A DNA stretch of 32,000 bases. Origin: Flavobacteriaceae bacterium. Its GTDB lineage: Bacteria > Bacteroidota > Bacteroidia > Flavobacteriales > Flavobacteriaceae. The position numbers and the translations under genes were made by a program. Location: the NCBI GenBank assembly GCA_965224465.1, contig OZ245049.1, positions 3,690,001 to 3,722,000 of the forward strand. The letters run 5' to 3'. This document shows positions 503-28,173 of this stretch, one piece after another; the first letter of the stretch is position 1, and each line of letters begins with the position of its first letter. The notes under the pieces are model-generated. The model made no database searches, had not been told where the DNA came from, and saw only the letters and a program-made list of their open reading frames with translations.

Positions 503-898
503 ATGTCGTTTTTAGCTCAATTAACAATAGCCGATGATACCATGAATGTATTGCGATGTTCTTTTAATTTTGAACAAGGTGCAGATGCTGCTGGTAAACC
601 ATCACAAAGACCAAGTGGAGGGAAACTCATAATTTTAATAGAATCTACTAGTAAAACAGATTTTTTGGAATGGATGATCTCTCCTAATATGACCAAAAAT
701 GGAGAAGTTGTTTTTTATAAAAGAGACAACATGTCTAGTTTAAAAACCATTTCTTTTAAAAATGCCTACTGTTTGAGTTATCAAGAAGATTTTGATGCAG
801 AAGGGAACCAACCTTTAAAAACACGGATTGTTGTGTCGGCAAAAGAAATTACAGTAAAGGATACCACCTTTTTCAATAACTGGTTTGATAGAGAATAA
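503..898 (+). CDS. hcp: Hcp/TssD-like T6SS tube protein, second paralog (131 aa)
   Basis: MSFLAQL..VLRCSFNFEQGADAAGKPSQRPSGGKLIILIEST...EWM shares the Bacteroidetes TssD pattern MSF..L....VL.C.Y...Q..D..GRPS...GGKI...ES....L.WM with the 128-aa paralog. About 95% identical to 20944..21339. Lies directly upstream of vgrG. Confidence 0.85.
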   Translation: MSFLAQLTIADDTMNVLRCSFNFEQGADAAGKPSQRPSGGKLIILIESTSKTDFLEWMISPNMTKNGEVVFYKRDNMSSLKTISFKNAYCLSYQEDFDAEGNQPLKTRIVVSAKEITVKDTTFFNNWFDRE

Positions 899-991: not shown

Positions 992-1144
992 GTACAATAC
1001 ATGTTTGAGGATAAGATGTGCGATCTGTTAAAGCGCATTTCTTATGGAGAACCTTCTTAAAAGAAGGTTGAATATAGATAATGCACGAATAAACAGGAGG
1101 GGAATTAATTATTTTCTTTCGAGAACACTATTTATTTAGAAAAT

Positions 1145-2959
1145 ATGGCACTACAAAGCAACACAACTATAATTATTAACGGACAACAAATTTCAAGTTT
1201 TCAAAGCCTTAACTTACATCAGAAAATTGATGCATGCCATTCGTTAACACTTACGTTTAGAATGGACACACTTGAAGATATAGGAGAAGAACTTGCAACC
1301 AACAGTAAGGAGTTTTTAGGGGAGATAATTTCCTTGCAAACGATTCCTGCAGACGGTTTTGAAGATCGTTATGGCGAGTTGACGTTTAAAGGTATTATTA
1401 CCGAAATAAAAACGATAAAAGGGCATGAGGTAAGTGATGGGGATAAAATAGTTATAGAGGCAAGAAGCCCCGATTTTTTAACAAATGATGGCCCGCATTT
1501 TGCGTCTCACAACGATGTTTCCCTTTCAGAAATTGTTAATATTTCGTTTGAAGGCTATGATACTTCAAAATTAGAAGTAGACGTACGCCCTCAAAACAAC
1601 CCTAGTTTGCATTATTCGGTACAGCATAACGAAAGTGCTTTTACGTATGTAAGTAGACTTGCAGCACAATACGGAGAGTGGTTTTATTACGATGGAGCTA
1701 AATTAGTATTTGGAATGCCTGGTACCGAAGACTTAGAACTTACCTATGGATTTGATTTAGTAGAGTATCAGATACGTTTGATGCCTCAGTCCAACAATTA
1801 CAAAATATTTGCAAATGATTATCTAACCGATGAGGTACAAGAAAAATCAACAAGCGAAATCAATGCCGGTTTAAGAGGTTTTGGAGGCTTTGTTTCTGAA
1901 AAATCAAATGCCATTTACAGAAAAGAAACAAAAATTTGGCACAATCTATACAGCGATACAGAAGTACAACAGCGTTTAGATACAGCAGTGGAATTACAGA
2001 AAAAAGCGATTGATGTAAAACAAGTAAAAGTACAGGGGGTTTGTGATAATCCAGGGGTGAAAATTGGGAGCGTAGTTGTAATAGATGGGAATAGATACAG
2101 AATTATAGAGGTTACACATAGCAATAATGAAATTGGAGATTATACAAATAATTTTGAAGGAATCACCGCAGATATAAACGCATATCCATACACCAACATA
2201 AACGCATTTCCAAAAAGCGAAACACAGGTAGCTACCGTAAAAGAAAATGCAGATCCCGATGGATTGGGGCGCATAAGAGTGCAATTTCCATGGCAAGTGG
2301 AGTATAGCGAGTTAACCCCATGGGTGCGCATTGTAACACCACATGGAGGAGCCAATAAAGGATTCCATTTTATACCAGAAATTGAAGAAAAAGTATTGGT
2401 AGGTTTTGAAGGAGGGAATGCAGAACATCCTTATATATTGGGTGTTTTATATACAGGAAATGCCAAACCCGAAGCGTTTAAAACCGACACCAACGATGTT
2501 AAAATTATAAGAACCCGCAGCGGACACACCATTGAACTAAATGATAAAGATGGTGAAGAAAAAATAAATATCTACGATAACGAAGGAAGTATCATCACTT
2601 TTGATACCCAAGCAAAATCCTTGTATATACAAGCTACGGAGAATATTGAATTCCAAGCAAAGAATATTAAATTAAAAGCGAGCGAGAATATAGAACTAAA
2701 CGCCGATCAAGAAATTAAAATAGCAGCAACGGGTAACGCATTATTAGCATCAGAGGCAGTTATTAACATACAAGCAGAAAGTGATGTTAACGTAAGTGCG
2801 AGTTCGAATATAACCATAGAAGCCAGTAGTAAAGCGAATTTTAAAGGACAAAGTATTATTGTAGAAGGGCAAACATCAGCTGAATTTAATAGTGCCCAAA
2901 CCAAAATTACGGGTAGTGGAATGATTGATGTTTCAGGAGGAATGATAAAAATAAATTAA
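1145..2959 (+). CDS. vgrG: VgrG/TssI T6SS spike protein (604 aa)
   Basis: Has a gp27/gp5-like layout. Contains a conserved RIRVQFPWQ....TPWVRIVTPHGG..KGFHFIPEI.E.VLVGFEGGN.E.PYILG OB-fold segment. The C-terminus is a beta-helix of repeated ...I.I.A..NI.L.A units. Positioned between hcp and the PAAR gene. Confidence 0.92.
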   Translation: MALQSNTTIIINGQQISSFQSLNLHQKIDACHSLTLTFRMDTLEDIGEELATNSKEFLGEIISLQTIPADGFEDRYGELTFKGIITEIKTIKGHEVSDGDKIVIEARSPDFLTNDGPHFASHNDVSLSEIVNISFEGYDTSKLEVDVRPQNNPSLHYSVQHNESAFTYVSRLAAQYGEWFYYDGAKLVFGMPGTEDLELTYGFDLVEYQIRLMPQSNNYKIFANDYLTDEVQEKSTSEINAGLRGFGGFVSEKSNAIYRKETKIWHNLYSDTEVQQRLDTAVELQKKAIDVKQVKVQGVCDNPGVKIGSVVVIDGNRYRIIEVTHSNNEIGDYTNNFEGITADINAYPYTNINAFPKSETQVATVKENADPDGLGRIRVQFPWQVEYSELTPWVRIVTPHGGANKGFHFIPEIEEKVLVGFEGGNAEHPYILGVLYTGNAKPEAFKTDTNDVKIIRTRSGHTIELNDKDGEEKINIYDNEGSIITFDTQAKSLYIQATENIEFQAKNIKLKASENIELNADQEIKIAATGNALLASEAVINIQAESDVNVSASSNITIEASSKANFKGQSIIVEGQTSAEFNSAQTKITGSGMIDVSGGMIKIN

Positions 2960-2975
2960 AACAAATAAATAAATT

Positions 2976-3668
2976 ATGCCAGGACCAGCAGCAACAATAT
3001 CACACATGCACACATGCCCTATGTATAGTGGAACAAGCCCACATACTGGCGGCCCCATTATAGGCCCGGGAGTGCCAACAGTTTTAATAGGAGGAAAACC
3101 TGCCGCAGTAATGGGGGATCAATGTACCTGTTCGGGACCACCCGATGTAATTGTAGAAGGTGTTTCTACCGTATTAATTGGTGGGAGACCCGCAGCTACT
3201 ATGGGATCGAAAACAGGTCATGGAGGCGTAGTAAGCATTGGAGATCCTACCGTACTTATTGGTACAAGATGTAGTGCTCCTACCGCAATAATGCCCGTGA
3301 GTAAAATACCTTTTCCTAAAATATCTTTTAAAGATCGTATACTGACTTCTTTGTCGGGGAATTCATTGGCAGAAGCAGAAGCGAATCAAGCTGCTTTGAG
3401 AGAAGAAGAGGAAGGTGAGCCTCGTGTTTATAATTTACGTTGGATAAAAGAAGAAAGGCTAACCAAAAAATCTTCAGTACTAACACAAGTAACATTAAAG
3501 GCAAGTGTCGTTAATTTTGATGATGGAGAAAGTGTAACCTTTACTATTAATTTACCAACCAAAGAAAAAGGAGGGGATACAGAACAGGTAACATTAACTG
3601 GAACAGTAAGAGATAAAGAAGTACAAGTGGTTTGGGAAACTAAGGATAAACCAAAACAAACCTTATAA
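2976..3668 (+). CDS. PAAR-domain spike-tip protein with a variable C-terminal beta-rich extension (230 aa)
   Basis: The N-terminal 95 aa carry PAAR-type repeats (GGKPAAVMGD, GGRPAATMGS, VLIGG x2, PTVLIG). A Glu-rich linker (REEEEGEP) is followed by an 80-aa tail unrelated in sequence to the tail of the paralog at 23256..23969. Confidence 0.9.
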   Translation: MPGPAATISHMHTCPMYSGTSPHTGGPIIGPGVPTVLIGGKPAAVMGDQCTCSGPPDVIVEGVSTVLIGGRPAATMGSKTGHGGVVSIGDPTVLIGTRCSAPTAIMPVSKIPFPKISFKDRILTSLSGNSLAEAEANQAALREEEEGEPRVYNLRWIKEERLTKKSSVLTQVTLKASVVNFDDGESVTFTINLPTKEKGGDTEQVTLTGTVRDKEVQVVWETKDKPKQTL

Positions 3669-3787
3669 AAGATAAGGCAGAGGTTGTAGAAGAAAAAAAA
3701 ACAGGACAATATAATGGTATTCTGTATGAGTGTAGTTTTACGGCAGAGGGTAGAGGAGTTACCTGTGTAGAGCAGCCTGTACTTAAA

Positions 3788-6640
3788 GTGGTTAAACCAG
3801 GTGTGCGAATAAATTTGATGCGTATAGCCTTGATAAATAGAACACCTAAGTTTACGCCTTTAATGCTAGAGGGGGTTGGGAAAGATGAATTTATGCCATT
3901 GGAGACCCCAAAAGGTGCTCCAGACGTAGAAGGGTTAAGCAACTATGTATATGCAAGTACAAGCTTAAGACCCGGGTTTTTATATGTAATCAACGAGAGT
4001 GATTCAGATGGTTGGAGTGAATGGGAAGTAGGATTAGGAGGGTGGCTTAAAGAGATAGATAAATCGCAAGCAGAAAGTGATTTTAGAAAAGTCACATCAG
4101 ATGCTGTAGTAATTGATCAGTATGTTGCAGAACCTACAGATGTTTTGTGGTTTGCGTACTCAGAAATACAATGGAGTGCAGATTATTTTAAAAGCATGCG
4201 TGATGATAGTTCTAAACGGGGCACTCGTATGCAAAAATATGACTTAATTAAACATGTTAATAATGAGTCTCAAAACGATGCAGCATCTTGGGATATAATG
4301 AAAAATAATTTTCTGATTATCCCCGAAAATAAATTGGATTATAATGCTACACAACAAAATTATACAATAGCTTCTTTTGATGAAACCAATAATACCGAAA
4401 GTTATAAACTGGATGCTATCCTATGTCTACATGATCCAGTAGGGGTTTTAGAAGAATTGTCGAATTATTTAAGGTATCTTTGGATTGAAATGGATAGTCT
4501 TTTGATATCTATGAAAACAGGGATTACACTGAGTGAAGCAGAAAATTGTTTAAGAAATAATAAAGATCCAAGAAAGTTACAAAACATTGAAGACCTGAAG
4601 CAAATTGAAGCATTGTACAATATAGGAGTAAACTTAAGAGGAGTAGCTTACGCCAATGATAAAAATAGAGAAGATCTTATCGAAGCTTGGTGGGGAATTG
4701 ATGTAAAACGACTCGACAAGGTCTTAGCAGTAGAAGATCGATTAGTGATTAAGAAAAAAATAGCTAAAGGAAGAGCATTTTTGGTTAATTTTGTAGATAG
4801 TGATTACTATGGGAAAATATTAGATGACTATCTAACCAACTGCGATGAAAATATTGAAGATGCCAAGTATACAAAAAGCGGATGGTTGTCCCAAATAGGG
4901 CAAATGCCTAATGATAGGGATGCTCTTATGGAAACTAAAGAGGAGGCAAGCGAGTGGAAAGCCAATGATGATATAGGTAAACAATTTATTAAAGACACAC
5001 TAGAAGGAAAAAATAATATTGGTAAAATTTTCACTACTCCTACATTAACAGAACAGGTAGAAGGAAAAGTGAATTGGGGGAAATACTTTGCTATTTCTGA
5101 TAATTTTTTTGAGTTTTATAAAACTGCTTTTAAAGATGGTGCTAATAGTCTTGAGAAAATAGTAAAAGTACTTAATACTACCCGAATAAAATTAAATGGT
5201 ACGATGATAGTTGCTACTTATCAGATTACAGATATAGCCACAGAGTTTAGAAAAACAGATATAGGGCGTTCTGATTTTATAAAGAAAACTTTAAATATTA
5301 ATAAAAAATCCATCAAGGCATTTAAAAAAATAAGTAGTAAATTCACAAGTAAGTTTGATAAACTACTAAAAACTAAGCAAATAACTTTCGGTAAAGCTTT
5401 TCAAAAGGTACTGAAAAATGATTTACTAGATTTTGTTGATGAGTTTAGTGGAAACACTTGTTGGGTAAAACTACTGCGTAATATCAGTATGGTTAATCTG
5501 GCGATGACCAGTGTAAAGATATTTAAATCAGATGATCCTGCTCAGCTTGGGCTGAATGTATCTAAGTTTGGTATTGCGATTGCAGATGCTCACATCACCT
5601 TACGGAACGTTAAATCCTTAGAAATAAACAGTAAAAAGGCTTTAAAAATATTTACTACAGATACTAAGTTGTTAGCAAAAAGAGTAGGTTATGCGGGGGC
5701 ATTAGTAGATGCTAGTGAAGCTGCATATAATTTTTGGCAGCGCGATGTTGATGCTGGTATGGCGTATGGGGGAGCAGCAATTAGTGGAGCACTAGGGACA
5801 CTATGCATATTAGCAGTGTCTAATTCTTGGCATCCTGGGGGGTGGGCACTACTGATTCTTGCATTGGCTCTGGGTATTTATGCGAATACTCTAGAAGATT
5901 CTCCATTAGAAACTATTGCAAAAAATGGAGTGTTTGGTCCAGTACCTAGTAAATGGTTGTTTTGGAGTAGTGTGGACTTTTCTAAAGATAAAAGTTATTT
6001 AGAATTGATACATAAACATGCCAATCTAGAGGTACGTAAGTCGCTACATAAAACAGGTTTTTCTGAATGGGTGGATTTACCAGTCCAGTACATTAATTTG
6101 TTGGATATATTGATAGGTGGGCGAGTGCAGCTCAAATCATCTAAAGAAGTATCTGCTGGAGATGGTAGAAGTTTGTATGCCGATAAGGTTAATATGAAAT
6201 TTGAATGTTTTATTATTAACGAAGCAAAAGCTGAACTTATTTTCGGGTGTTTTTTACAAGAAAAAGATCAAGTAGATTATGAAATTTACTATTCTCCTGC
6301 AGGACTAGGGGGAGATTTCACCTGTTATAAGCCTAGTTATTTAGGAGTATGTATAGAAATGATTACAGAAAAAGATAAACCTACTAAGGCTATAATTACG
6401 ATTCCGATGCACCAATTGCAACATACATCCTCGGGGGTGTTAATGATTATGGCCCGTGTAGCTTTTGCAGGAGGGCAGTATTTTCCTGTACCTAATATTA
6501 ATACACCAAGATATTCAGCGTCTATTATTCCTATGATACGCACTGATTATAGTTATGGATCGTATTATACCGATGGTATTAACAACCGAGTGATTATAGA
6601 TACCAAACAAAAATTATTAAACAAAAAAGAATGGAAATAA
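3788..6640 (+). CDS. Large T6SS effector candidate: MIX-like N-terminal region, glycine-zipper TM helices, beta-rich C-terminal domain (at least 950 aa)
   Basis: LRPGFLYVI (3965-3991) and FAYSEIQWS (4151-4177) fit the MIX core and C-flank consensus. LHDPVG is shared with the cassette-B paralog. TM segments are GMAYGGAAISGALGTLCILAV and GGWALLILALALGIYA. The annotated start is a GTG, but the frame is open from 3650 and stays homologous to the paralog upstream of 3788, so the 5' end is uncertain. Confidence 0.6.
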   Translation: MVKPGVRINLMRIALINRTPKFTPLMLEGVGKDEFMPLETPKGAPDVEGLSNYVYASTSLRPGFLYVINESDSDGWSEWEVGLGGWLKEIDKSQAESDFRKVTSDAVVIDQYVAEPTDVLWFAYSEIQWSADYFKSMRDDSSKRGTRMQKYDLIKHVNNESQNDAASWDIMKNNFLIIPENKLDYNATQQNYTIASFDETNNTESYKLDAILCLHDPVGVLEELSNYLRYLWIEMDSLLISMKTGITLSEAENCLRNNKDPRKLQNIEDLKQIEALYNIGVNLRGVAYANDKNREDLIEAWWGIDVKRLDKVLAVEDRLVIKKKIAKGRAFLVNFVDSDYYGKILDDYLTNCDENIEDAKYTKSGWLSQIGQMPNDRDALMETKEEASEWKANDDIGKQFIKDTLEGKNNIGKIFTTPTLTEQVEGKVNWGKYFAISDNFFEFYKTAFKDGANSLEKIVKVLNTTRIKLNGTMIVATYQITDIATEFRKTDIGRSDFIKKTLNINKKSIKAFKKISSKFTSKFDKLLKTKQITFGKAFQKVLKNDLLDFVDEFSGNTCWVKLLRNISMVNLAMTSVKIFKSDDPAQLGLNVSKFGIAIADAHITLRNVKSLEINSKKALKIFTTDTKLLAKRVGYAGALVDASEAAYNFWQRDVDAGMAYGGAAISGALGTLCILAVSNSWHPGGWALLILALALGIYANTLEDSPLETIAKNGVFGPVPSKWLFWSSVDFSKDKSYLELIHKHANLEVRKSLHKTGFSEWVDLPVQYINLLDILIGGRVQLKSSKEVSAGDGRSLYADKVNMKFECFIINEAKAELIFGCFLQEKDQVDYEIYYSPAGLGGDFTCYKPSYLGVCIEMITEKDKPTKAIITIPMHQLQHTSSGVLMIMARVAFAGGQYFPVPNINTPRYSASIIPMIRTDYSYGSYYTDGINNRVIIDTKQKLLNKKEWK

Positions 6641-7485
6641 AAATTGATAAGAAGTATGACACCGCAAAATATTTTAAACGTTTTATTAGGTTACCATATG
6701 TTATTTATGAGGTGCCAACAGAACAAGAGATAGATATTGAAGATAATAAGAAATATGACGAACAATTTACAAATGAAATAATTAGAGAATTTACACCAAG
6801 TAGTAAAAGTAGTTATATAATTGATGTATATATATATAGTATAGTAGCTGCATTTTTTGGTTTATTAATGCCGATAGCAGGAACAATATTTGAAAAAGGA
6901 CTCATGTATTTATGGGTGTATGTTATTTATGTTTTAATTTCCCTGTTTTTTATCAGAATTACCTATTATTACTGGAAAAAATATCAAGTAGCTCCAGAGT
7001 TGGCACATATTACATTTGATAGAATGAATCAGATGATTGTTTTGCCTAGGGCAGGAGAATTTGAGTATTTTAAAATACCATTTAAACAACTAAGAGTATC
7101 AATAGAAGGGGTTGGAGGTTCCGTAATGTCATATATGGGTAAGCATTTGATTTTTTATAGAGGGTATTCTATGAACCTGATTAAGATGCATAGTGCCAAA
7201 TTAATGATGGGAGGTTTTCCTAATAATCCGAAACAAGATTGGTCATTCTATGTATGGTATATGGATAAAAATCGCCCTTTGCCACCTGGGCTGGCTTTTG
7301 ATGCGTATAGAGAAGTTGATTTTGAAAGAAGAAAGAAGGCAGGGTTTCCTCCTCCATTATTCAAAAGTTTAGTACCAACCCCAGAGGCAAGTCAGGAGCA
7401 ACAATTACTACGTGAAACTTTTTGGAAAGACGAAGATTATATAGCTACAAAAAAAGAATCACATTTTAGTCTTTGGAGAAAATAG
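6631..7485 (+). CDS. 2-TM membrane protein of the WYMDKNRPLP family; candidate immunity protein for the upstream membrane effector (284 aa)
   Basis: Its start overlaps the effector stop by 10 nt (atggaaataa). Two hydrophobic helices (IYSIVAAFFGLLMPIAGTIF, LWVYVIYVLISLFFIRI). The C-terminal motif WSFYVWYMDKNRPLPPGLAFDAYREVDFERRKKAGFPPPLF is shared with 17096, 18755 and 27327. Confidence 0.55.
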   Translation: MEIKIDKKYDTAKYFKRFIRLPYVIYEVPTEQEIDIEDNKKYDEQFTNEIIREFTPSSKSSYIIDVYIYSIVAAFFGLLMPIAGTIFEKGLMYLWVYVIYVLISLFFIRITYYYWKKYQVAPELAHITFDRMNQMIVLPRAGEFEYFKIPFKQLRVSIEGVGGSVMSYMGKHLIFYRGYSMNLIKMHSAKLMMGGFPNNPKQDWSFYVWYMDKNRPLPPGLAFDAYREVDFERRKKAGFPPPLFKSLVPTPEASQEQQLLRETFWKDEDYIATKKESHFSLWRK

Positions 7486-7557
7486 ACAAAAGAGAAATAG
7501 AATTCTGTTTTTAACAACTAAAAATTCTGTTAGCACAAATCTACAAGCAATGTATTC

Positions 7558-7578
7558 GTGTGGATTTTAAATCCGCGC
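7558..7578 (+). promoter_or_regulatory. Conserved junction hairpin (variant with two G.U-compatible changes)
   Basis: gtgtggattt-t-aaatccgcgc. The copies at 19571-19591 and 28143-28163 have gcgcggattt. The two C-to-T changes here keep pairing as U.G only if the plus strand is the RNA. Confidence 0.4.
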
Positions 7579-7588
7579 CAGTAACTGA

Positions 7589-7750
7589 GTGTCTGCTAGG
7601 AATGTTTTGCGGAAAGGTTTACGGAAAAAGGTGATTTATGTATCATTAGTAAATACAGATGATGTTTGTGAGTTTTTAAGTAATGGAAAAGAAGAACAAT
7701 ATTTTACAAATATTATAGCAGGGACAAAATTAAAAACAAGCCTATTTTAC
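7589..7750 (+). pseudogene. 5' fragment of a cell-wall-hydrolase effector gene (paralog of 28174..30891), cut by IS66 insertion
   Basis: GTG start. Reads SARNVLRKGLRKKVIYVSLVNTDDVCEFLSNGKEEQYFTNIIAGTKLKTSLFY, matching residues 1-54 of the 905-aa protein. Ends exactly at the IS inverted repeat (IR). Confidence 0.85.
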
Positions 7751-7778
7751 GTAAGCGTACGGTAAAGTACACCCTTGA

Positions 7779-9281
7779 TTATTTATCAACAGGCTTCCAA
7801 TTTTGAGGCAGTAACTCCGAAAGTTTATTAGCCTTATGTTCTGGTAATCTATTAAGGACATCACATAGCCACGTATGTGGGTTTACGTTATTCTTTTTGC
7901 AAGTAGCAAAAAAGCTATAAAATAGAGCTATGTTTTGTGCGGACTCATGACTGCCAGCAAAGAGATAATTTTTTCTGCCAATAGCTAAAGGTCTTATGGC
8001 ATTTTCTATATTATTGTTGTCTATTTCAAACCTGCCATCATCGATGTATAGTTTTAGGTTTTGCCATATTTTAAGAGTATAAGCAATTGCTTTTCCTATG
8101 GCACTTTTAGGCAGTACGTTTTTTCGCTCTTTTGTAAGATAAATTTCTATTCCGTCTAAAACAGGTGATGCATGTTTTTCTCTATATGCTTTAGTTTGCT
8201 CAATAGTTAATTCTTGTTCTTTTATTTTACGTTCTATCTTGTATAGCTTTTGAATTTCCAACAAAACAACATCCGCTCTTTTAGGATCATTATCCAGCGC
8301 CTTCTCAAAATACCGCCTAGCATGAGCCATGCAACCTAAAAGAGTAATTTCTCCTTTTGTTGTTAAGTTTTGGTATGCAGCATACCCATCGGACTGTAGT
8401 GTCCCATTGAAATCTTTAAAAAACTCTTCTGGAACAACTTTTCCTCTCCCTTTATTGTATTCAAAAAGAACTAAATTTTTAACAGGATTTCGATACACCC
8501 ACATATACCCTCTGTGTGTTGATTTTTTCTTGTCTTTATCTAAAACCTTTATAGGAGATTCGTCTGCTTGAATATAATTGGCATTTTCTAAAAACTGAGC
8601 CTTAAATGTATCGTATAAAGGAGCGATAAGCTCCGAACTTTTAGATACCCATCCTCCAATTGTTGATTTACTTACTTTTAAATCTTGTCGTTTAAAAATT
8701 TGAATTAATCTGTAAAGTGGTAAATGGTCTACAAATTTTGAAATAAGTATAAAGGCCAATAAACTTGCTGATGCATTTCCTTTAGGTATCGGTAAGCTTG
8801 GTAATTCTGCTATAACAACGCCTTTTTCTTCCGGAAGTGCATATTTAGGTCTTACAATTCGTCTTACAAAAACGGAAAGAGGCGTTATTTCTAAAAGTTC
8901 TGTAACTTCTTCTCCTATTTTTACAGCTCCTTCTTCTATGTGCTTAGGCTCTATAATCTCTTCTACTCGCGGAAAATGCGCAGGTATAGAAGAGCGAACA
9001 GGTTTTTTCTTTCCTTTCTTCTTTTGTTTTCTTTCGTAGATTACAATATGTTTTTTGTATGCCTCTTCTTTCTCAGCTATTATTTTTCCGAAAAGCGACA
9101 ATTGATTTGTGTCAACAGGGATAAAACGTTCGCTTTTAGACCCGAAAACCATTCTTCTAAGCTGCTCGTATTGCTGCTTAATTTCAGCTAGTTCTTGAGC
9201 TGTTTTTTCAAGTTCAATCTTTAAAATTACCAGCTCTTTTTGTATGTCTATTGTATTGTTTTCCACACTATAAATATACAA
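7779..9281 (-). CDS. tnpC: IS66-family transposase TnpC (500 aa)
   Basis: N-terminal coiled coil (LEKTAQELAEIKQQYEQLRRMVFGSKSERF) followed by a DDE-type core. The C-terminal AIGRKNYLFAGSHESAQNIALFYSFFATCKKNNVNP block is typical of IS66 transposases. Confidence 0.9.
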   Translation of the reverse strand: MYIYSVENNTIDIQKELVILKIELEKTAQELAEIKQQYEQLRRMVFGSKSERFIPVDTNQLSLFGKIIAEKEEAYKKHIVIYERKQKKKGKKKPVRSSIPAHFPRVEEIIEPKHIEEGAVKIGEEVTELLEITPLSVFVRRIVRPKYALPEEKGVVIAELPSLPIPKGNASASLLAFILISKFVDHLPLYRLIQIFKRQDLKVSKSTIGGWVSKSSELIAPLYDTFKAQFLENANYIQADESPIKVLDKDKKKSTHRGYMWVYRNPVKNLVLFEYNKGRGKVVPEEFFKDFNGTLQSDGYAAYQNLTTKGEITLLGCMAHARRYFEKALDNDPKRADVVLLEIQKLYKIERKIKEQELTIEQTKAYREKHASPVLDGIEIYLTKERKNVLPKSAIGKAIAYTLKIWQNLKLYIDDGRFEIDNNNIENAIRPLAIGRKNYLFAGSHESAQNIALFYSFFATCKKNNVNPHTWLCDVLNRLPEHKANKLSELLPQNWKPVDK

Positions 9282-9324
9282 AAAACAAGACTAAATAGCA
9301 GGTAAAACCTACAGTTTTATTGAA

Positions 9325-9678
9325 TTATTTAGCCTCTAAATAACGTTCGTTTTTCTGAGTATTTATAATACTAATTCCGTCTAAAACCATAACCATTTGG
9401 GTATAACTCAAAACTACTAATCCATCTTCAATGTCGTATTTTGGAAGCTCAAAAATACCTCGTTCCAATCGTTTATAATACAGTACAAATCCTCCAGGTC
9501 GCCAATGAAGAAGTTTTAGTTTATTTTTTTGCTTATTGATAAATGCATAAACACTATTTCTATCTCGCTCTTGTTCCATGTGCTCACTAACTAATCCACT
9601 TAATCCATTAAATCCTTTTCGCATATCAACTGCAGATAAGTGATAATAATACGTGTGTTCTGTACCTAATCCTAACAT
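9325..9678 (-). CDS. tnpB: IS66 Orf2/TnpB accessory protein (117 aa)
   Basis: Contains VDMRKGFNGLSGLV...LLHWRPGGFVLYYKRLERGIFELP, the characteristic IS66 TnpB pattern. Lies immediately upstream of tnpC on the same strand. Confidence 0.85.
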   Translation of the reverse strand: MLGLGTEHTYYYHLSAVDMRKGFNGLSGLVSEHMEQERDRNSVYAFINKQKNKLKLLHWRPGGFVLYYKRLERGIFELPKYDIEDGLVVLSYTQMVMVLDGISIINTQKNERYLEAK

Positions 9679-9756
9679 TTATATTTTCGTTTTTGTTTAG
9701 ATGCAAAAATTAGATTATTTTTAACTTCTTACAAGATGTAGTTCTCCGTACGCTTA

Positions 9757-10659
9757 CTATTTTACAAAGTAGATATTAAAGCAAATATCCGCATAAAAGT
9801 ACTTGAAATTAAAGGAGATTACGCACAAATAAAAGTAACATCTATTACTGCAACCTTAGTTAGAGATACCGATATTAATGATAACGTAAAACCATTTAAT
9901 AGCAATAAACTTTATACTATCAAAAATCTTACTACGGTTAATAAAATAAAGCATTTAATGGTCTTGCAACTAAAGATGCCACATTCAATACAAAACAAGT
10001 AAAAGCACCAAGAAATTGGAGAACAAATTTAAACAGAACTGTTACCTTTTACCCAAATGGCTATGGTAAAGTGATTTGGATAGAAAAAACATCTATTTCC
10101 AAAATAGCAGAAAAAATAAAAAAAATTAGATATAATTACCTCAATTATTCCTGACTATTTTTTAACAGATAAACAAAAATACGAAACAGTTGAAAGAGAA
10201 GCCAAAACAGGAGAAAAAACTACATTATATGTAGATGTATGTAAGGCATATATCGAAGTCCCTTTTAGAACCGATGTAGAAGAAGTAACTGTAGAAAAAG
10301 AAAAAGTAGTTGACTTACGTAAATTTAAAAAAGCAAAAGACGATAAAAAAGACCTTTGGTATAAAGTAGTATTAGATGATACAACTAGTAGCCAATGTGT
10401 AGCAGTAAAAGGCTGGGTAAAAGAAAAGGATCTTGACAAATTTAGCGCTTACGATTGGCAAAAATTTGGTTTTAAAGATCTAGACGCAGGTAATGAATAC
10501 ATATACTCTGTAAAAGACTTACGTGAGGCAACAGATAGTGCCGATTTTGTAACCGAAATTTGGGATAAAACAATAGATACAGATGGCAATAAAGTATTAG
10601 ATATACTAGAGCTTATTAGAGCGTTTAGTAAACCAGAAATAGCACAAAAACTATCTCGT
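9757..10659 (+). pseudogene. Continuation of the IS-disrupted effector gene, with at least two further frameshifts
   Basis: Collinear with 28335..29229. There is a 5-nt aataa duplication near 9941-9950 (ttaataaaataaagcattt versus ttaataaagcattt). There is a 2-nt shorter, degenerate stretch near 10105-10140. In-frame stops occur at about 9998 and at 10117. Confidence 0.8.
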
Positions 10660-12303
10660 TTGGTATGTAAGCACAAAAATGAATGGTCTTATACTATGGA
10701 CGAAATAAAACCAGAAGTAAAAGAACGCTGTGATTTTGGTATACAATTAGAAGAAGTTACAGCCGAAAAACAAAAACTAGAAACCCAAAGGGATGATAGT
10801 TTAGCCAAAATGGAAGCCAAAATAGAAAATTTAATGTGGTGGGATGAGGCAAGTAAAAAAACCTACACAGCACCCGTAAAAGAAGAAGATAAAACAAAAA
10901 CGAGTAGCACCAAAAGACCTTCTATGTTGCCAGAAGGTACAGTGGTAGAAGAAATACCACAAAAAGTTGTTGTACCTTTAGACAATAAAACAACAGCAGC
11001 TAAACCAGATGCTAAACCAACGGAAGATAGTATACCAACGACAAGTACAACCGCTGCTCCAGCACCAGAAACTAAAGTAGAAGAAAAAGAAGTGCCGCCA
11101 AAACGTATGTTTCCTAAAAGCAATATAGTACATCACTTTCATCCAATTGCTTGGGTGGAGCAGATGAGACTTGTTTTTGGGGATGAGGGTATTTGTGTCT
11201 GTGAAGCTAGAGTTAGGGCTTTTATGACAATGTTACGAATTGGAGAGGGGACTTTAGAAGATATTGGTTATGAAACTATTGTCGGTGGTTCTCACTTTAA
11301 AGATTATGGTAAAAATTTTAGCAACCATCCTGAAATTTACATAGAAAAATATGATTCGACTGCTGCTGGCGCTTATCAAATAACAAAGACGAATTGGAAT
11401 GATATTGCTTTTGTAAAATGGAGAGAAAATAAAAAAGTAATAGATTTCTTTCCAATAAGTCAAGATAAATATTGTTTTTATCTTTTGCAAAAAAAGAGAA
11501 AAGCAATAGATTTAATTAAAAAAGGATATATTAACGAGGCAATATTTAAAGTAAGAAAAGAATGGGCAAGTTTACCTGGTTCTGGTCATGGACAAAGAGA
11601 AGAAAAATTATCAATTGTAATCAATAAATATATTGAATTTTATAAGAATGAGTTAAAAGGAATTACACAATTAAAAATTCCTTATGGTGGATTTGAAAAG
11701 TTTGGGTTTGATTGTAATTGTCAAAATAATAATGAAACTGATACTACTTGTGGCAAAACACATATTGATGTCACAAATTTAATGATTTTTTATGACCAAG
11801 GAAGTGGAAATTCTAATTGTAATAAAACATGTAAATCCATAATGCTCCAAATGCAGGTTATTGCAGAAGGAGCAACTACAAAAGCCAAGATTAGACCAAA
11901 TCTTCCAGGTTCTTATTATCAAATTGCTGAAGAAAATTTAACAAGAGATGGGTTTGCTTTTGATGAACAAAAAAGTATAGAAGGAATCTCTTATTTAGAT
12001 AAAGCATTAGAACATGGAGACCCAATACTTTTTGGTGTAAATCATACATATAAATATCGTAAATTCGGAACAATCAATGATGACTCAACTGACCATTATG
12101 TGATAGTTACTGGTAGAAAATGTTTAGATGGAAAAACTATTTATACCTATTGGGATGTTGGTACTAAATATGGCGGAAAAGGAGACTATTATTTTACATT
12201 AGAGAATAATAAATTAACATCATCTTCGAGATCAAAAAAATATACAGTAACACAAATTAGAAGAAATTTAAACTTAAATGGAAAAATTATTCAATATAAT
12301 TAA
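10660..12303 (+). CDS. C-terminal toxin portion of the disrupted effector: Pro/Thr/Lys linker, FHPIAWVEQMR junction, lambda-lysozyme/GH104-like lytic domain, and an uncharacterised Cys/His C-terminal domain
   Basis: MLRIGEGT..GYETIVGG....HP......STAAGAYQI....W......FFPISQDKYCFYLL......I..G.I..AI......WASLPGSGHGQ resembles lambda-type lysozyme / lytic transglycosylase families. The frame is open from 10120, but the first start-like codon is TTG at 10660 and the next is ATG at 10696. Expression is therefore doubtful. Confidence 0.55.
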   Translation: MVCKHKNEWSYTMDEIKPEVKERCDFGIQLEEVTAEKQKLETQRDDSLAKMEAKIENLMWWDEASKKTYTAPVKEEDKTKTSSTKRPSMLPEGTVVEEIPQKVVVPLDNKTTAAKPDAKPTEDSIPTTSTTAAPAPETKVEEKEVPPKRMFPKSNIVHHFHPIAWVEQMRLVFGDEGICVCEARVRAFMTMLRIGEGTLEDIGYETIVGGSHFKDYGKNFSNHPEIYIEKYDSTAAGAYQITKTNWNDIAFVKWRENKKVIDFFPISQDKYCFYLLQKKRKAIDLIKKGYINEAIFKVRKEWASLPGSGHGQREEKLSIVINKYIEFYKNELKGITQLKIPYGGFEKFGFDCNCQNNNETDTTCGKTHIDVTNLMIFYDQGSGNSNCNKTCKSIMLQMQVIAEGATTKAKIRPNLPGSYYQIAEENLTRDGFAFDEQKSIEGISYLDKALEHGDPILFGVNHTYKYRKFGTINDDSTDHYVIVTGRKCLDGKTIYTYWDVGTKYGGKGDYYFTLENNKLTSSSRSKKYTVTQIRRNLNLNGKIIQYN

Positions 12304-13196: not shown

Positions 13197-14663
13197 ATGG
13201 GCGCACCAACCGCTGCTCCAACACCAGAAACTAAAGTAGAAGAAAAAGAAGTACCACCAAAACGTATGTTTTCTAAAAGCAATATAGTACACCGCTTTCA
13301 TCCTATTGCTTGGGTGGAGCAGATGCGGAGGGTTTTTGGAACTGGTAATTGTTCACAATGCGAAAAAGATTTCACCTATGAACAAATTAAGGCTATCTTT
13401 CCTGCTGCTGCAAAAAATGAAACTTTAGCTAAACAACTTATTGATGAACTGAATTTAGTACGTGAAAAACACAAAATAAATACTTGTCAGAAAAAAGCAC
13501 ACCTTATTACACAATTTGGTTCCGAAACTGGATTTAATACATTGATTGAGGATTTGGCTGGATATAGTGTATCTGCACTTAAAAAATTCAGTTACTTTGC
13601 AAGAAATCCAAATGAAGCAAAGTTATATCTAGGTAATACCAAAGAAATTGCAATGCGGGCATATGGTCTTCGTAGCGTGGATAAAGAAAAAGATATAGTT
13701 ACTTGTGTTGGATTGTCTAAAACAGAAAAAAAACTAAAAAAATGCAATGATTTAGGTAATAAAACTATGTTGGATGGTTATAGCTATATGGGCAGAGGTT
13801 TAATACAATTAACTGGAAGGTATAATTATGAAAATATAAATAAGAAATTTCAAAAGGCATTTCCAGATGAAGGAGATTTATTAGCAAACCCTCAACTTTT
13901 AGAACAGCCAAAGTATGCTGTAATGTCTGCTATGAGTTATTGGATAAATAAAAACTTAAACAAACTAGCAGATGAAGGAGGTTATAGTCAAGTTAATAAA
14001 ATAACTGGTATTATAAACAAAGGTTTAAGTAAAGGACATTATGCTAAACGAAGAAATTCGTTTGTAGAGGCTTTTTATGCATTTAATCTAAGTACATGTA
14101 AACTCCAAAACTCACAAACAAACTCTGATTTAAAAATAAAAGAAGGTTTAGCTTGGGCAGAAAGTATAGCAATTACAGAAACACAACTAAAAGCAAACCC
14201 TAAAACACCATATATTATAAATTATAATCAGGAATCTGGAAAGGAAGGACATTTAAGAACAGAACAAACCGAAAAAGGAATTGCTAAAATGGACTGTTCC
14301 GAATTGGTATGCAGGTATTTACAGAAAATTGAATGGAGTGAGAATGTAGAGTATATAACATCTAATGGACTTGTTGACTACGCAGCACAACATCCTGATA
14401 AACTTATAGTAAATAATGGTAATCCAAAAGTTGGAGATATATTTGCTTGGAGAGGTCATACTGGTATTATTAAAAGTTATGACTCATCAACAAAAAAGAT
14501 TGTAACTATAGAATCCATTAGAGAAAAATCGTACTCTTGGCATGAAGGCATCTTTTTTAAAGGTGTAGTTATTTGGACGTATACTAAAGATCTAAATCAT
14601 TTAAAAAGTAAAAAAGGAAAAAAAGTACATTACTACACTCCAATAAATCATTATTCAAAATAA
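13197..14663 (+). CDS. Orphan effector module: shared linker and junction motif, then a GH19-like muramidase/chitinase domain and an NlpC/P60-like cysteine peptidase domain (488 aa)
   Basis: Homology to the 905-aa effector starts at TAAPTPETKVEEKEVPPKRMF..NIVHRFHPIAWVEQMRRVFG and then diverges. GH19-like blocks: ITQFGSETGFN, GRGLIQLTGRYNYENI, AVMSAMSYWINKN. NlpC/P60-like blocks: MDCSELVCRYL ... GDIFAWRGHTGII. Has its own ATG start. Confidence 0.7.
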   Translation: MGAPTAAPTPETKVEEKEVPPKRMFSKSNIVHRFHPIAWVEQMRRVFGTGNCSQCEKDFTYEQIKAIFPAAAKNETLAKQLIDELNLVREKHKINTCQKKAHLITQFGSETGFNTLIEDLAGYSVSALKKFSYFARNPNEAKLYLGNTKEIAMRAYGLRSVDKEKDIVTCVGLSKTEKKLKKCNDLGNKTMLDGYSYMGRGLIQLTGRYNYENINKKFQKAFPDEGDLLANPQLLEQPKYAVMSAMSYWINKNLNKLADEGGYSQVNKITGIINKGLSKGHYAKRRNSFVEAFYAFNLSTCKLQNSQTNSDLKIKEGLAWAESIAITETQLKANPKTPYIINYNQESGKEGHLRTEQTEKGIAKMDCSELVCRYLQKIEWSENVEYITSNGLVDYAAQHPDKLIVNNGNPKVGDIFAWRGHTGIIKSYDSSTKKIVTIESIREKSYSWHEGIFFKGVVIWTYTKDLNHLKSKKGKKVHYYTPINHYSK

Positions 14664-16065: not shown

Positions 16066-16097
16066 CATAAAAAAACCTCGATTTATTGATCGAGGTT
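16066..16097 (-). terminator. Intrinsic terminator of the remnant tnpC
   Basis: aacctcgat (16074-16082) pairs with atcgaggtt (16089-16097). On the minus strand the stem is followed by a T-run, the complement of aaaaaaa at 16067-16073. Confidence 0.55.
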
Positions 16098-16604
16098 TAA
16101 ATTTTGTGGAAATAGCTCACTTAATTTTTGAGCATTGTAATCAGGGATTATATCCAGTATTTTTTTCATCCATTTATAGGGGTTTACTTGGTGTTTTTTA
16201 CAAGTCCCAAAAAAGGAATAGAACATCGCTGCATTTTTTGCAGCATCATGGCTACCTGCAAATAAATAATTTTTACGTCCAATAGCTAATGTTCTGATAG
16301 ATCCTTCTACTAGGTTATTATCTAGTTCTAAAGTACCGTCATACAGGTAGGCTTTTAAGTAGTCCCATCGTTTTAATGTATAAGTAATTGCTTTTCCTAG
16401 TGGACTTTTCGGTAAGCTTCCTTGGGTATTATGGATCAACCATTTTATAAATGTATCCATTATTGGTTGTGCTTTATCTAGGCGATAAGCATGCCGTTGC
16501 TCAGGAGTAAATTCCTGGTTTTTACAATGTCGTTCTATCCAAATTGGAGGTAATGATAGAGCTGGTGCTACCTTTACTTCTGCCAATATTACAAGAGTAA
16601 CCAT
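16083..16604 (-). pseudogene. tnpC: Truncated IS66 transposase TnpC (C-terminal 150 aa only)
   Basis: LPKSPLGKAITYTLKRWDYLKAYLYDGTLELDNNLVEGSIRTLAIGRKNYLFAGSHDAAKNAAMFYSFFGTCKKHQVNP aligns with the C-terminus of the 500-aa TnpC at 7779..9281, at roughly half identity. No DDE core is present upstream. Confidence 0.8.
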
Positions 16605-17095: not shown

Positions 17096-17791
17096 ATGGC
17101 AAAAATTAAAAAGCGTTTTGGTAAATGGGGAGGTTATTTGCCACATTGTATTGATGGACGACCTACAATAGATATAAAAAAAGAAGAAATGGATGGAGAA
17201 TATTATATTAAAGCTAATGATGAGTTTTTTATAATGAATAATGATTTATTTGGTAATATATATCTATATATAGGGTTAGCCCTTTATTTCTTTATGTTAT
17301 TAACAATAGCAATAAGACTTTCTGCAGATAAAGATGTTGGTTTTATTTTTTTATTTTTTTTATTTTCTTTTGGAACATTATCTATCATATATAATTATAC
17401 AGCTCCAGTAAAAAAGATTATTTTAGATAGACTCAATGGGATCGTTACTTTTCCCAACTTTTTATGGGGCAAACCTATTTGCATGCCTTTTAAAGATATG
17501 TTGGTAGCATGGTCAGTAAAAAATTCAGGAATCAACCCTTCAGGACCTTCGCTTTCTGCTTTTCATCCCAACGGTTTTTTTAGCACCGATATTATGGGGG
17601 CAGATGTGTTGGAAGATTGGTATTTTATAGTATGGTATATGGATAAAAACCGTCCTTTACCTCCGGGTACTGCTTTTGATGAATATCGTGAGAAAGATTA
17701 TCTGCGAAGAAAATCTGAAGGCTTTCCAGAAGGGTTATATCCTTGTAGTATTCATATTCCAGAATACAAGCCTTCAAAAAAAAGAAAGTAA
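17096..17791 (+). CDS. 2-TM WYMDKNRPLP-family membrane protein (231 aa), candidate orphan immunity
   Basis: Helices IYLYIGLALYFFMLLTIAIRL and VGFIFLFFLFSFGTLSIIY, followed by LDRLNGIVTFPNFLWGKPICMPFKDM and WYFIVWYMDKNRPLPPGTAFDEYREKDYLRRKSEGFPEGLY. Confidence 0.6.
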   Translation: MAKIKKRFGKWGGYLPHCIDGRPTIDIKKEEMDGEYYIKANDEFFIMNNDLFGNIYLYIGLALYFFMLLTIAIRLSADKDVGFIFLFFLFSFGTLSIIYNYTAPVKKIILDRLNGIVTFPNFLWGKPICMPFKDMLVAWSVKNSGINPSGPSLSAFHPNGFFSTDIMGADVLEDWYFIVWYMDKNRPLPPGTAFDEYREKDYLRRKSEGFPEGLYPCSIHIPEYKPSKKRK

Positions 17792-17858
17792 AAAACAAAG
17801 AATTGTAACTCTTATTAATTAGAAAATAATATGATAACTATTAAGAATTGTTAGTGTC

Positions 17859-18761
17859 TTTAATAAACGGGATGTTGACGCCAGTGTTGCTTGGAAGTTG
17901 GCAGGCGTTGCTTTTACAGTAAGTACTGCGGCAGGTATTTGGGGAGGAACTATTTTTTTATTATCAGGGCCTGTAGGTTGGATTGCCTTAGGAATTGGTT
18001 TAATAGGAGTGGTTTCAGCAAATATTTTTATAGACACAGACTTGGAATTCTATTTTAAACACTTTTTATTATCCGATCATAAAAAATTACCTATTGGTAA
18101 TAACAGTCCTATGGCATACAACCGTCTTGTCTATAAAAGTATTGAGACTTTAGTAGAGAGTGAGGATGAAGACATTAAAAATAGCCTAATGTATCCTGAG
18201 GATGCTATTGCTAGTTTACACGATCTTACGGTATGTACCAGCATTAATTACTATGTAGAAAACATGAAAATGAAATTTGCAGGCAGACGTGGTAGAAGTA
18301 CGGGGTATTATGTAAGTAGTTTTGGTATTACTATGAATTTTAATCATTTTTTATACGATGTAAATCAATTAGAAGCAAAAGGTATGATAGTGCGTCATAC
18401 CTGGGTTAATAGTATTGGAAGTAATGCCGAAGAATTTAATTTAATATTAAAAGATGCCAAAATAATAAGCATGAAAAATGGACAACAACAACTTTTAGTA
18501 ATTGTAGCAATACCTTACGAAAAAAGAAAATTAATAAAAGACGATAAAGATTTAGAAATGGTACTAGCCATACGTGTAAGAATTAATAAAGAGAAAAACC
18601 ATTACTTCCCTTACAGACTACTAGACAAACCTGAACGCTATATTGGTGCTAAATTTAAGTTATATAAAAACATATACACTAATTCAGGGGAAAATAACAC
18701 AGATAATCAAAATTTAGTTTTTGATACCTTAGCGAACTTAAAACTTGATAAAACATGGTAG
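17859..18761 (+). pseudogene. Orphan C-terminal toxin module (TM helices plus beta-rich domain) of the cassette-B membrane effector; no N-terminal loading region and no ATG
   Basis: Homology to 26431-27333 begins at FNKRDVDAS. Only 4 aa differences occur over the last 287 residues. The frame is open only from 17838 and the first start-like codon is TTG at 17898. Confidence 0.75.
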
Positions 18762-19543
18762 ATGCGACTTTTAATTACAAACGCCCTATAACCCATACCC
18801 AATACAAACATGGAGATAAAGAAACCAAAAAAGGAGGATTTAGCAGAATGCTGACTATGCGTATAACAGATGACATGCATGTTATGAAAAAAAGTGATGT
18901 AGGTACTAAAGGGGGCTTTCCTTTTGCTACAGATGTTTTTTTAAAATGCCCTGTTGTTCCTAAGATAATGCCTTTATGGTTGGGTAGCGTATTTTTATTT
19001 TTATTTTTATTTTGTATTTATGTATATCTTACACCAAGTGACAAAGACAATGGCGATTATATATTATTTTATTTAATAACTTTTCTTTCTTTTCTAGGAT
19101 TTTTGTTTTTTGCAACCTATTATTTTACGATGCCAACAAAAGAGCTTATTTTTAATAGAGCGGACGGTTTGGTTACTTTTCCTGGGTTTATGTGGTGTAA
19201 AAACATAACAATGCCTATACATAAAATGATGTTTTCTATGTCATCGCCTAGTACGCAAGGAGGAGGCGCTTATATGTTGCAAATTGTACGACCAGACAGG
19301 ACGTATTCTTTGTATTTATGTACAAGGGGCTATAGTTGTTATGAAGATTTATCATCTTATTTATGGTATATGGATAAGAACAGACCATTACCTACGGGGG
19401 AAGGTTTTGATCCGTGTCGTTTACAAGATTATGAACGTAGAAAATCTGAGGGTTTCCCTAAGCCATTATTTCCTTGTAGTTTTGAAACTCCAGAAGCTAC
19501 GCTTGAACAACAGGCAGAACGTGAGCGTATTGGCGGTTGGTAA
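18755..19543 (+). CDS. 2-TM WYMDKNRPLP-family membrane protein (262 aa), candidate immunity for the orphan toxin tail
   Basis: A 7-nt ATGGTAG overlap with the toxin stop, identical to the arrangement at 27327. 241/262 residues are identical to 27327..28115. Confidence 0.65.
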   Translation: MVDATFNYKRPITHTQYKHGDKETKKGGFSRMLTMRITDDMHVMKKSDVGTKGGFPFATDVFLKCPVVPKIMPLWLGSVFLFLFLFCIYVYLTPSDKDNGDYILFYLITFLSFLGFLFFATYYFTMPTKELIFNRADGLVTFPGFMWCKNITMPIHKMMFSMSSPSTQGGGAYMLQIVRPDRTYSLYLCTRGYSCYEDLSSYLWYMDKNRPLPTGEGFDPCRLQDYERRKSEGFPKPLFPCSFETPEATLEQQAERERIGGW

Positions 19544-19570
19544 AAGTTGATAGCGCAAAGCAATGCATTC

Positions 19571-19591
19571 GCGCGGATTTTAAATCCGCGC
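19571..19591 (+). promoter_or_regulatory. Conserved GC-rich junction hairpin
   Basis: gcgcggattt-t-aaatccgcgc, preceded by the 8-bp palindrome aatgcatt. The stem is GC-rich in an otherwise AT-rich context. Found in the same position after the immunity gene as at 28143. Confidence 0.4.
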
Positions 19592-19601
19592 CAGTAACTG
19601 A

Positions 19602-20670: not shown

Positions 20671-20833
20671 TACCAATTACAATCCAAAATGACCGATATA
20701 AATAGTTTATTTTACGTACTAGCGTTGTTAAAAAATAGAACGATAGCTAAGGCTATCCTTAGATTTTCCGCCTAGATAGAACATAAAATAATTCTATTTC
20801 TAAACCGTCTATTGGAAATGCATTTGGTATAAT
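20671..20833. repeat. Single-copy form of the hcp intergenic element (about 163 bp), with imperfect terminal inverted repeats
   Basis: Left end is taccaattacaatccaaaatgaccg. The reverse complement of the right end is taccaaatgcatttccaatagacgg. TA(A) is present on both flanks. Confidence 0.55.
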
Positions 20834-28163: not shown

Positions 28164-28173
28164 CAGTAACTGA

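Follow-up and report, generated by a model that had tools for sequence, protein, structure and literature searches.

The window analyzed here is a 32,000-nucleotide stretch of contig OZ245049.1 (positions 3,690,001 to 3,722,000, assembly GCA_965224465.1) from a marine member of the Flavobacteriaceae. It carries two similar type VI secretion system (T6SS) cassettes, A and B, both on the plus strand, and each contains the gene for a large effector. The segments at 3965-4177 and 24278-24523 are very probably the core of the MIX (marker for type six effectors) domain, VasX_N in Pfam, of two paralogous toxins of about 1000-1100 amino acids (aa). The toxins belong to the VasX/BTH_I2691/Bte2 family of T6SS effectors and are considered pore-forming by analogy with its characterized members.

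The MIX domain is located at the N-terminus of each effector, next to hcp, vgrG, and PAAR genes. The same position is observed in six other Bacteroidota genera. VasX_N is the name that Pfam uses for the MIX superfamily (PMC13133200). The positions of all features are collected in Table 1.

Conservation of the MIX core

The MIX consensus has three parts, shhPhR, hRxGhhYhh, and hhF/YSxxxWS/T. This is the form that PMC12909789 gives after Salomon et al. 2014, and a sequence-only reading of the window had used the same one. That reading had picked out a set of motif strings in both effectors, and every one of them is encoded where it had been reported (Table 1). It had also described the order and spacing of the motifs as the same in A and B. 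The order is the same; the spacing is not, since the central and C-terminal motifs together span 71 aa in effector A and 82 aa in effector B. The LHDPVG string noted in both proteins is indeed common to them and, in effector A, lies where the MIX domain gives way to the helical region.

In a profile search, both effectors score above the gathering score of Pfam VasX_N (PF20249), which is 27 bits. Motif conservation was counted in 144 N-domains from 142 proteins, made up of library representatives at no more than 50% identity and close homologs. In the central motif, the glycine is present in 137 of 137 sequences and the tyrosine in 134 of 137, and the arginine position is occupied by Arg (64), Asn (42), or Lys (6). 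The C-terminal motif has Ser in 129, Gln in 126, Trp in 123, and Ser or Thr in 118. LxDPxG is also a family feature (D in 127, P in 119, and G in 105 of about 135 sequences). Among homologs, xGhhYhh and YSxxxWS are conserved, as expected of a MIX domain. A regular expression requiring the central and C-terminal motifs 30-100 aa apart finds one site in the six-frame translation of the window; the IGYS of effector B falls outside the strict hydrophobic class of the expression. In 200 shuffles of the window, the mean was 0.0 sites.

LHDPVG has a superficial likeness to the DPxGL cleavage motif of Rhs proteins, and this identity was weighed and set aside. Tke5 has LADAEG at the corresponding position, and no sign of cleavage was found.

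A chance resemblance to MIX in unrelated large proteins is vanishingly improbable. It draws on two observations. A phmmer search of the PDB with effector A alone gives Ptx2 at no better than E = 0.59, and the literal shhPhR with its proline is not found at the homologous position. The remaining evidence is against chance. The Pfam E values are 3.8e-17 and 1.7e-13, both at scores above the gathering score, and the motif positions are near-invariant across the 144 N-domains and are not reproduced together in the shuffled sequences. When a profile of 93 family members is compared with the PDB, it has two matches only, Tke5 (9R8G, 1.4e-16) and Ptx2 (9QPV, 5.6e-16), with the central and C-terminal motifs in register. 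A structural match to Ptx2 at a Foldseek probability of 1.00, described below, points the same way.

Architecture of the toxins

Effector A has the architecture of VasX-like toxins, i.e., a MIX domain at the N-terminus, a large region of helices, some of them transmembrane (TM)-like, and an immunoglobulin (Ig)-like beta domain at the C-terminus. An AlphaFold2 (AF2) model of effector A, built on a 12-sequence alignment, has a mean predicted local distance difference test (pLDDT) score of 65.6. Its confidence is high for the MIX and C-terminal domains and for most of the helical region. The model has strands at aa 44-163, helices at aa 255-814, and strands again at aa 817-959. In Foldseek, Ptx2 is the sole significant PDB match to the model (E 2.7e-10), and the match is full length, with 1158 aligned columns. 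The VasX-like architecture proposed by the sequence-only reading is borne out by the model and by the structural match. The profile match, the conserved motif positions, and the fold, any of which could have told against that reading, all favored MIX/VasX.

The TM-like helices of effector A align weakly with the TM region of Tke5 and with effector B. Both proteins had been described as ending in TM helices, and this is incorrect. In effector A, the helices occupy aa 697-740 of 988 and are followed by a beta-rich domain of about 250 aa. In effector B, they are encoded in a separate open reading frame (ORF), 25207-27333, because the gene is frameshifted.

NCBIfam BTH_I2691 (NF041559) also matches both toxins. 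Effector A scores 88.1 bits (E 5.5e-25), and the two ORFs of effector B score 32.1 bits (model positions 44-261) and 38.6 bits (model positions 628-826). All homologs in the protein collection carry PF20249, and a homolog from Aquimarina longa that is 50% identical to effector A is named "toxin VasX" by NCBI.

Several points weigh against the assignment. The BTH_I2691 scores are under the curated cut-off of 150 bits, the TM region of the effector A model has a pLDDT of 30-45, and the TM-score between effector A and Ptx2 is only 0.28, at 12% identity. Effector A also lacks a canonical start at the conserved position, and effector B is frameshifted. Because their scores are under 150 bits, the window toxins are regarded as homologs outside the curated, mostly proteobacterial BTH_I2691 subfamily. 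Bte2 likewise lies outside this subfamily, according to Ratner et al. 2025 (PMC12718326).

Position of the N-terminal motif

The sequence-only reading had taken VKPGVR in effector A and LLPGIR in effector B as the first MIX motif. This placement is most likely wrong. In the profile alignment, the segment P23-V-R25-Y-A-I-V of Tke5 (within PILPVR) aligns with f-L-R-Y-g-L-F of the family, which is RINLMR50-IAL in effector A and RLHFLR-YGLF in effector B. The position aligned with R25 of Tke5 is an arginine in 116 of 121 family members, and the proline of shhPhR is found in nine members. By comparison, the position of the VKPGVR/LLPGIR arginine has Arg in 46 members and Lys in 26. R25 of Tke5 is tied to the toxin body by a salt bridge (PMC12909789).

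The alignment of this flank is the edge of a local match. With moderate confidence, the true N-terminal motif most likely lies five residues downstream of VKPGVR and LLPGIR, and its proline appears to be absent in this clade.

Relation to described effectors

Bte2 is an effector of the GA3 T6SS-iii of Bacteroides fragilis. It is a divergent pore former of the VasX family (Ratner et al., PNAS 2025, PMC12718326), in which the MIX domain is N-terminal, a helical TM region follows, and an Ig-like domain makes up the C-terminus. Table 1 of PMC13133200 lists Bte2 as a MIX effector of the BTH_I2691 family that has no adaptor and is VgrG-dependent. By its published description, Bte2 and the window toxins share a Bacteroidota T6SS-iii setting, a length of about 1000 aa, the three-part architecture, and the lack of a DUF4123 adaptor. 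The genes of both lie in vgrG/paar loci that also hold a gene for a membrane immunity protein, a putative one in the window; GA3 locus II is made up of vgrG, paar, bte2, and bti2. The window modules are a marine counterpart of this locus II module.

Bte2 differs in its host, as B. fragilis is a member of the gut Bacteroidales and the window host is a marine member of the Flavobacteriaceae. The dependence of Bte2 on the prey Rnf complex was inferred to be limited to gut Bacteroidales (PMC12718326) and probably does not apply to the window toxins. The window also has two cassettes with near-identical spikes, and both of its toxin genes are damaged.

Tke5 is a Pseudomonas putida effector (9R8G, PMC12909789) and the best PDB match of the family profile. 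Its three MIX motifs, the first of which has a likely counterpart in the window proteins, run in the same order, and it has the same three-part architecture (MIX at residues 17-238, an alpha region, and a beta-rich Ig-like region). Its MIX domain binds the adaptor and packs against the toxin body (PMC12909789). Tke5 belongs to a T6SS-i and is loaded by the DUF4123 adaptor Tap3, whereas no such adaptor was found in the window. The window proteins have about 40 extra N-terminal residues, Leu or Phe in place of the proline of shhPhR, and LHDPVG where Tke5 has LADAEG.

Ptx2 of Pseudomonas aeruginosa (9QPV) matches effector A by both Foldseek and the family profile, with VRNGYLYVI and VAYSELQWT aligned to the central and C-terminal motifs. 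It differs in that it is an effector of a proteobacterial T6SS-i and depends on the adaptor Tap6 and on VgrG6.

VasX of Vibrio cholerae is the founder of Pfam VasX_N and an original MIX effector, and the window proteins pass the Pfam family named for its N-terminus. It is a membrane-depolarizing toxin with a membrane immunity protein, TsiV2 (PMC13133200). As points of difference, VasX needs a DUF4123 adaptor (VasW), none of which was found in the window, and it also acts on amoebae.

MIX effectors had been taken as essentially proteobacterial, so that their occurrence in a T6SS-iii would be new. This view matched the literature of 2014-2017 (PMC5471719) and is now outdated, given the 2025 publication of Bte2 (PMC12718326) and the NCBI name "toxin VasX". 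In that study, IMG was searched with pfam20249, and about 90 Bte2 orthologs were reported in four phyla. The ortholog list includes Aquimarina, Cellulophaga, Algibacter, and Capnocytophaga; Olleya aquimaris appears in the genome table, and Aquimarina sp. MAR_2010_214 is recorded with immunity (PMC12718326). Because Bte2-type effectors of the Bacteroidota T6SS-iii have been published, the MIX effectors of the window are an already described, ordinary kind of effector.

Integrity of the effector genes

Each effector gene carries one lesion. In effector A, an AAG codon is found at 3674-3676. The intact paralog from the same genome (P0002, MAEVVEEKK), which is 95-100% identical around 3650-3830, has ATG there, as does every other homolog (MAEVV...). 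In effector A, the open frame extends from 3650, with no in-frame ATG, GTG, or TTG until the GTG at 3788. The NCBI protein for this gene (P0001, 940 aa) begins at ATG 3818, inside the first MIX strand. In effector B, the frame is lost at a run of nine adenines. When one adenine is added, the gene becomes an ORF of 1117 aa that is 44.5% identical, end to end, to a Fulvivirga homolog encoded by a single ORF. Homologs read through the junction (25160-25207) as ...KKKTNNYVANEHIGSGLHR.... The split could be due to mutation, sequencing error, phase variation, or slippage. Either gene could be inactive or weakly expressed, or its lesion could be a sequencing error.

Both copies could be relics in decay, part of a graveyard of effectors that insertion sequences (IS) have reshaped, with P0002 as the working toxin and the window MIX domains no longer engaged in loading. 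This is unlikely, although far from negligible. It would account for the change from ATG to AAG at the conserved start, the NCBI model that starts within the first MIX strand, and the split in an A9 run through which homologs read. An IS66 element that interrupts the next gene, a second IS66 fragment nearby, and orphan toxin-tip and immunity modules are also in keeping with it. Set against decay is that, apart from its one lesion, each gene keeps its reading frame for about 1000 codons. Over aa 1-240, effector A and intact P0002 are 98-100% identical, and a start at GTG 3788 would still cover the whole Tke5-equivalent MIX fold. The A9 run may be readable by slippage or may be a sequencing error, and the immunity genes are intact.

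The comparison with P0002 also bears on how the domains are inherited. Beyond aa 240, identity between effector A and P0002 drops to 70% in aa 241-280, the window that contains LHDPVG, and to 30-55% in most later 40-aa windows. The two proteins have the MIX domain in common and differ in their toxin bodies. The N-terminal domain thus looks separately exchanged, given the drop in identity near LHDPVG.

The PAAR tail and effector loading

The PAAR protein of cassette A is made up of a cone (aa 1-100), a helical linker of two helices (aa 118-143), and a five-stranded beta-sandwich (aa 150-223), as modeled by AF2 (pLDDT 83.4). In sequence, it matches the PAAR protein of B. fragilis in 8GRA (chain J) at E 7.3e-49, with residues 6-222 aligned to 5-218 of 222, tail included. 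The 8GRA protein is the PAAR for Bte2 (PMC13402684). The Foldseek search with the PAAR model gave no significant match, PAAR structures included.

Between the two cassettes, VgrG A and VgrG B have 27 differing positions, none of them after aa 416, and their C-terminal 188 aa are identical. The PAAR proteins have three differences up to aa 149 and diverge strongly from aa 150 (tails at 3423-3668 and 23703-23969). The divergence runs from this point through the effector and the immunity gene, and the MIX domains of A and B are about 25% identical.

A similar pattern is observed in other genomes. The tail of PAAR B resembles that of a Fulvivirga locus (L005), whose effector resembles effector B. 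Across seven loci, the Spearman correlation with effector N-domain identity is 0.58 for the PAAR tail and -0.36 for the PAAR core; the locus pairs are non-independent, and the p-value is nominal. Short PAAR proteins (153-160 aa) precede non-VasX effectors in three of three loci. A scan of 19 window ORFs gave no match to a DUF4123 (Tap) adaptor.

The PAAR tail travels with its cargo and may therefore be a cargo-specific adaptor, and the C-terminal beta-sandwich may stand in for the DUF4123 adaptor. The broader proposal is that, in T6SS-iii, the cognate MIX receptor is the PAAR tail of about 75 residues (aa 150-223) and not a Tap adaptor or the VgrG C-terminus. This proposal is tentative and on balance doubtful. 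Two findings tell against it. The docking idea rests on co-inheritance in seven loci, and Labilibaculum manganireducens (L016:5001-7517) has an extended-tail PAAR protein paired with a Tle1-like effector without MIX. The tail of that protein is similar, minus the EGEPRIYNxxW segment, and precedes a Tle1-like lipase. The tail scaffold thus serves cargo of more than one family, and an extended tail exclusive to VasX_N effectors is ruled out. In the literature searched, no paper that assigns a PAAR tail as the MIX receptor was found.

Alternatively, MIX may be loaded in the proteobacterial manner, by way of the VgrG C-terminus or of an unlinked adaptor, and the PAAR tail used for another purpose, e.g., spike stability or binding of the prey envelope. 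This is plausible, if short of probable. The VgrG dependence of Bte2 (PMC13133200) is consistent with it, and divergent VgrG C-termini have been proposed to confer specificity in B. fragilis locus II (PMC13402684). The Labilibaculum pairing and a Tenacibaculum PAAR-VasX pair without an adjacent vgrG also fit. It is harder to reconcile with the last 188 aa of VgrG, which are identical in A and B, yet precede MIX domains that are only about 25% identical, and with the start of the divergence at exactly PAAR aa 150. The negative DUF4123 scan and the tail-less PAAR proteins ahead of non-VasX effectors likewise count against it.

Proposed mode of action

The homology and architecture of the toxins are shown by sequence and model, and what follows on secretion, pore formation, immunity, and docking is extrapolated from Tke5, Ptx2, VasX, and Bte2. 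By this analogy, the alpha/beta MIX domain would hold the toxin soluble and closed and would dock on the VgrG-PAAR spike. Docking would most likely use the C-terminal beta-sandwich of PAAR, the part that is swapped along with the toxin. The fired toxin would reach the prey periplasm, where the Gly/Ala-rich central helices are predicted to enter the inner membrane; the ion-selective pores that they form there would abolish the membrane potential. The C-terminal Ig-like domain may aid membrane or receptor targeting. The adjacent two-TM protein would protect the producer.

Gene content of the window

The window has a GC content of 32.6%, and the nearest relatives belong to Aquimarina, Bizionia, and other marine Bacteroidota, so that the host is probably Aquimarina-like. 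Over 1111-3550, the DNA of cassette A is 95% identical to cassette B. The order of vgrG, PAAR (about 225-261 aa), VasX_N protein (about 990-1120 aa), and small protein is kept in Bizionia, Aquimarina longa, Fulvivirga, and Marinilabilia. Two small genes separate vgrG from PAAR in Saccharicrinis. In Tenacibaculum maritimum, the PAAR, VasX_N, and small protein genes are present without an adjacent vgrG.

Table 1. Features of the two T6SS cassettes and of related modules in the 32,000-nucleotide window.
Feature	Position	Strand	Support
Cassette A hcp (TssD, Bacteroidota type)	503-898	+	Pfam TssD PF17642, 160.2 bits
Cassette A vgrG, 604 aa	1145-2959	+	Phage_base_V 79.8 bits; Phage_GPD 37.3 bits
Cassette A PAAR with C-terminal extension, 230 aa	2976-3668	+	PAAR_motif 73.2 bits
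Effector A, VasX/Bte2-like toxin, 988 codons from the lost-start position	3674-6640	+	NCBIfam BTH_I2691 88.1 bits; Foldseek to Ptx2
VKPGVR, N-flank of the sequence-only reading, effector A	3791-3808	+	Translation
MIX/VasX_N match, effector A aa 42-192	3797-4249	+	PF20249 63.2 bits, E 3.8e-17; model pLDDT 80-92
RINLMR, effector A, likely counterpart of shhPhR with L for P	3806-3823	+	Profile alignment, Tke5 R25 on this R
Central MIX motif LRPGFLYVI (hRxGhhYhh), effector A	3965-3991	+	Aligns with Tke5 LRPGYVYVF and Ptx2 VRNGYLYVI
C-terminal MIX motif FAYSEIQWS (hhF/YSxxxWS/T), effector A	4151-4177	+	Aligns with Tke5 IGYSPHLWT and Ptx2 VAYSELQWT
LHDPVG, effector A aa 252-257, boundary of MIX domain and helical region	4427-4444	+	Family-conserved
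Two Gly/Ala-rich TM-like helices, effector A aa 697-740	5762-5893	+	Kyte-Doolittle windows of at least 1.6
C-terminal beta-rich (Ig-like) domain, effector A aa 817-960	6122-6553	+	AF2 strands pLDDT 73-88; weak Foldseek Ig matches
Putative immunity protein A, 284 aa	6631-7485	+	Directly 3' of toxin; two TM-like segments
Orphan immunity paralog	17096-17791	+	Paralogy
Duplicate of the final 287 aa of effector B, 98% identical	17898-18761	+	Sequence comparison
Orphan immunity paralog	18755-19543	+	Paralogy
Cassette B first hcp	20284-20670	+	ORF
Cassette B second hcp	20944-21339	+	ORF; 88% DNA identity to hcp A
Cassette B vgrG	21425-23239	+	27 differences from VgrG A
Cassette B PAAR, divergent tail	23256-23969	+	PAAR_motif 72.9 bits
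Effector B, VasX-like gene, frameshift-split (23981-25183 and 25207-27333)	23981-27333	+	PF20249 51.4 bits
LLPGIR, N-flank of the sequence-only reading, effector B	24101-24118	+	Translation
MIX domain, effector B aa 45-207	24113-24601	+	PF20249 51.4 bits, E 1.7e-13
RLHFLR (then YGLF), effector B	24116-24133	+	Profile alignment to Tke5
Central motif LKKGYVYII, K for R, effector B	24278-24304	+	Translation
C-terminal motif IGYSPVQWS, effector B	24497-24523	+	Translation
LHDPVG, effector B	24788-24805	+	Translation
A9 homopolymer, effector B frameshift site	25160-25168	+	A10 or -1 slip restores frame
Putative immunity protein B, 262 aa	27327-28115	+	Paralog of 6631-7485; two TM-like segments

The hcp genes of both cassettes are flanked by short direct and inverted repeats that are 94-97% identical (64-285, 961-996, and 20605-20778). 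These may be promoter or recombination sequences. Antisense ORFs at 3428-3709 and 3640-3942 overlap well-supported plus-strand genes.

The putative immunity proteins are part of a set of four paralogs in the window, each with two TM-like segments (6631-7485, 17096-17791, 18755-19543, and 27327-28115). They have an invariant motif, WYMDKNRPLP.G..FD..R..D..RRK..GFP, and none of the four has a Pfam or NCBIfam match. These paralogs are presumably the immunity family for the toxins, and by analogy the two-TM proteins located downstream of the toxins fit membrane immunity proteins of the TsiV2/Tki5/Bti2 kind. Two of the paralogs are orphans, and a copy of the end of effector B lies between them (Table 1). 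The DNA of 17849-19668 is 96% identical to that of 26421-28240.

An IS66-family element is located at about 7751-9756, with a transposase (7779-9281) and orf2 (9325-9678), both on the minus strand. The element interrupts a paralog of a 905-aa M23-peptidase protein (region 7545-11277), and the stretches on either side of it (7545-7750 and 9757-11277) correspond to 28130-28335 and 28327-29856. Part of a second IS66 transposase is found at 16083-16604 on the minus strand.

Two other genes, which follow the VasX modules, encode putative cell-wall-degrading effectors. The 905-aa protein (28174-30891) has a C-terminal Peptidase_M23 domain (68.6 bits). A 488-aa protein (13197-14663) has weak CHAP and GH19-like matches. 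The two genes share short stretches of DNA, as 13207-13339 matches both 11048-11180 and 29615-29747.

Implications for MIX effectors in Bacteroidota

MIX effectors in Bacteroidota are recognized by standard annotation, and published catalogs of them already cover Aquimarina and related marine genera. The window is still a clear natural case of modular exchange, in which near-identical spikes are combined with different PAAR tails, toxins, and immunity genes. The third paralog, P0002, carries the same MIX domain on a different toxin body.

If the PAAR tail is the MIX receptor, there would be three nested exchange units, namely VgrG with the PAAR cone, the PAAR tail with MIX, and the toxin body with the immunity gene. 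The exchange junctions would lie at PAAR aa 150 and near LHDPVG. This would provide a rule for the pairing of effectors and spikes in Bacteroidota. The window itself could guide experiments on the loading of adaptor-less MIX effectors in this phylum.

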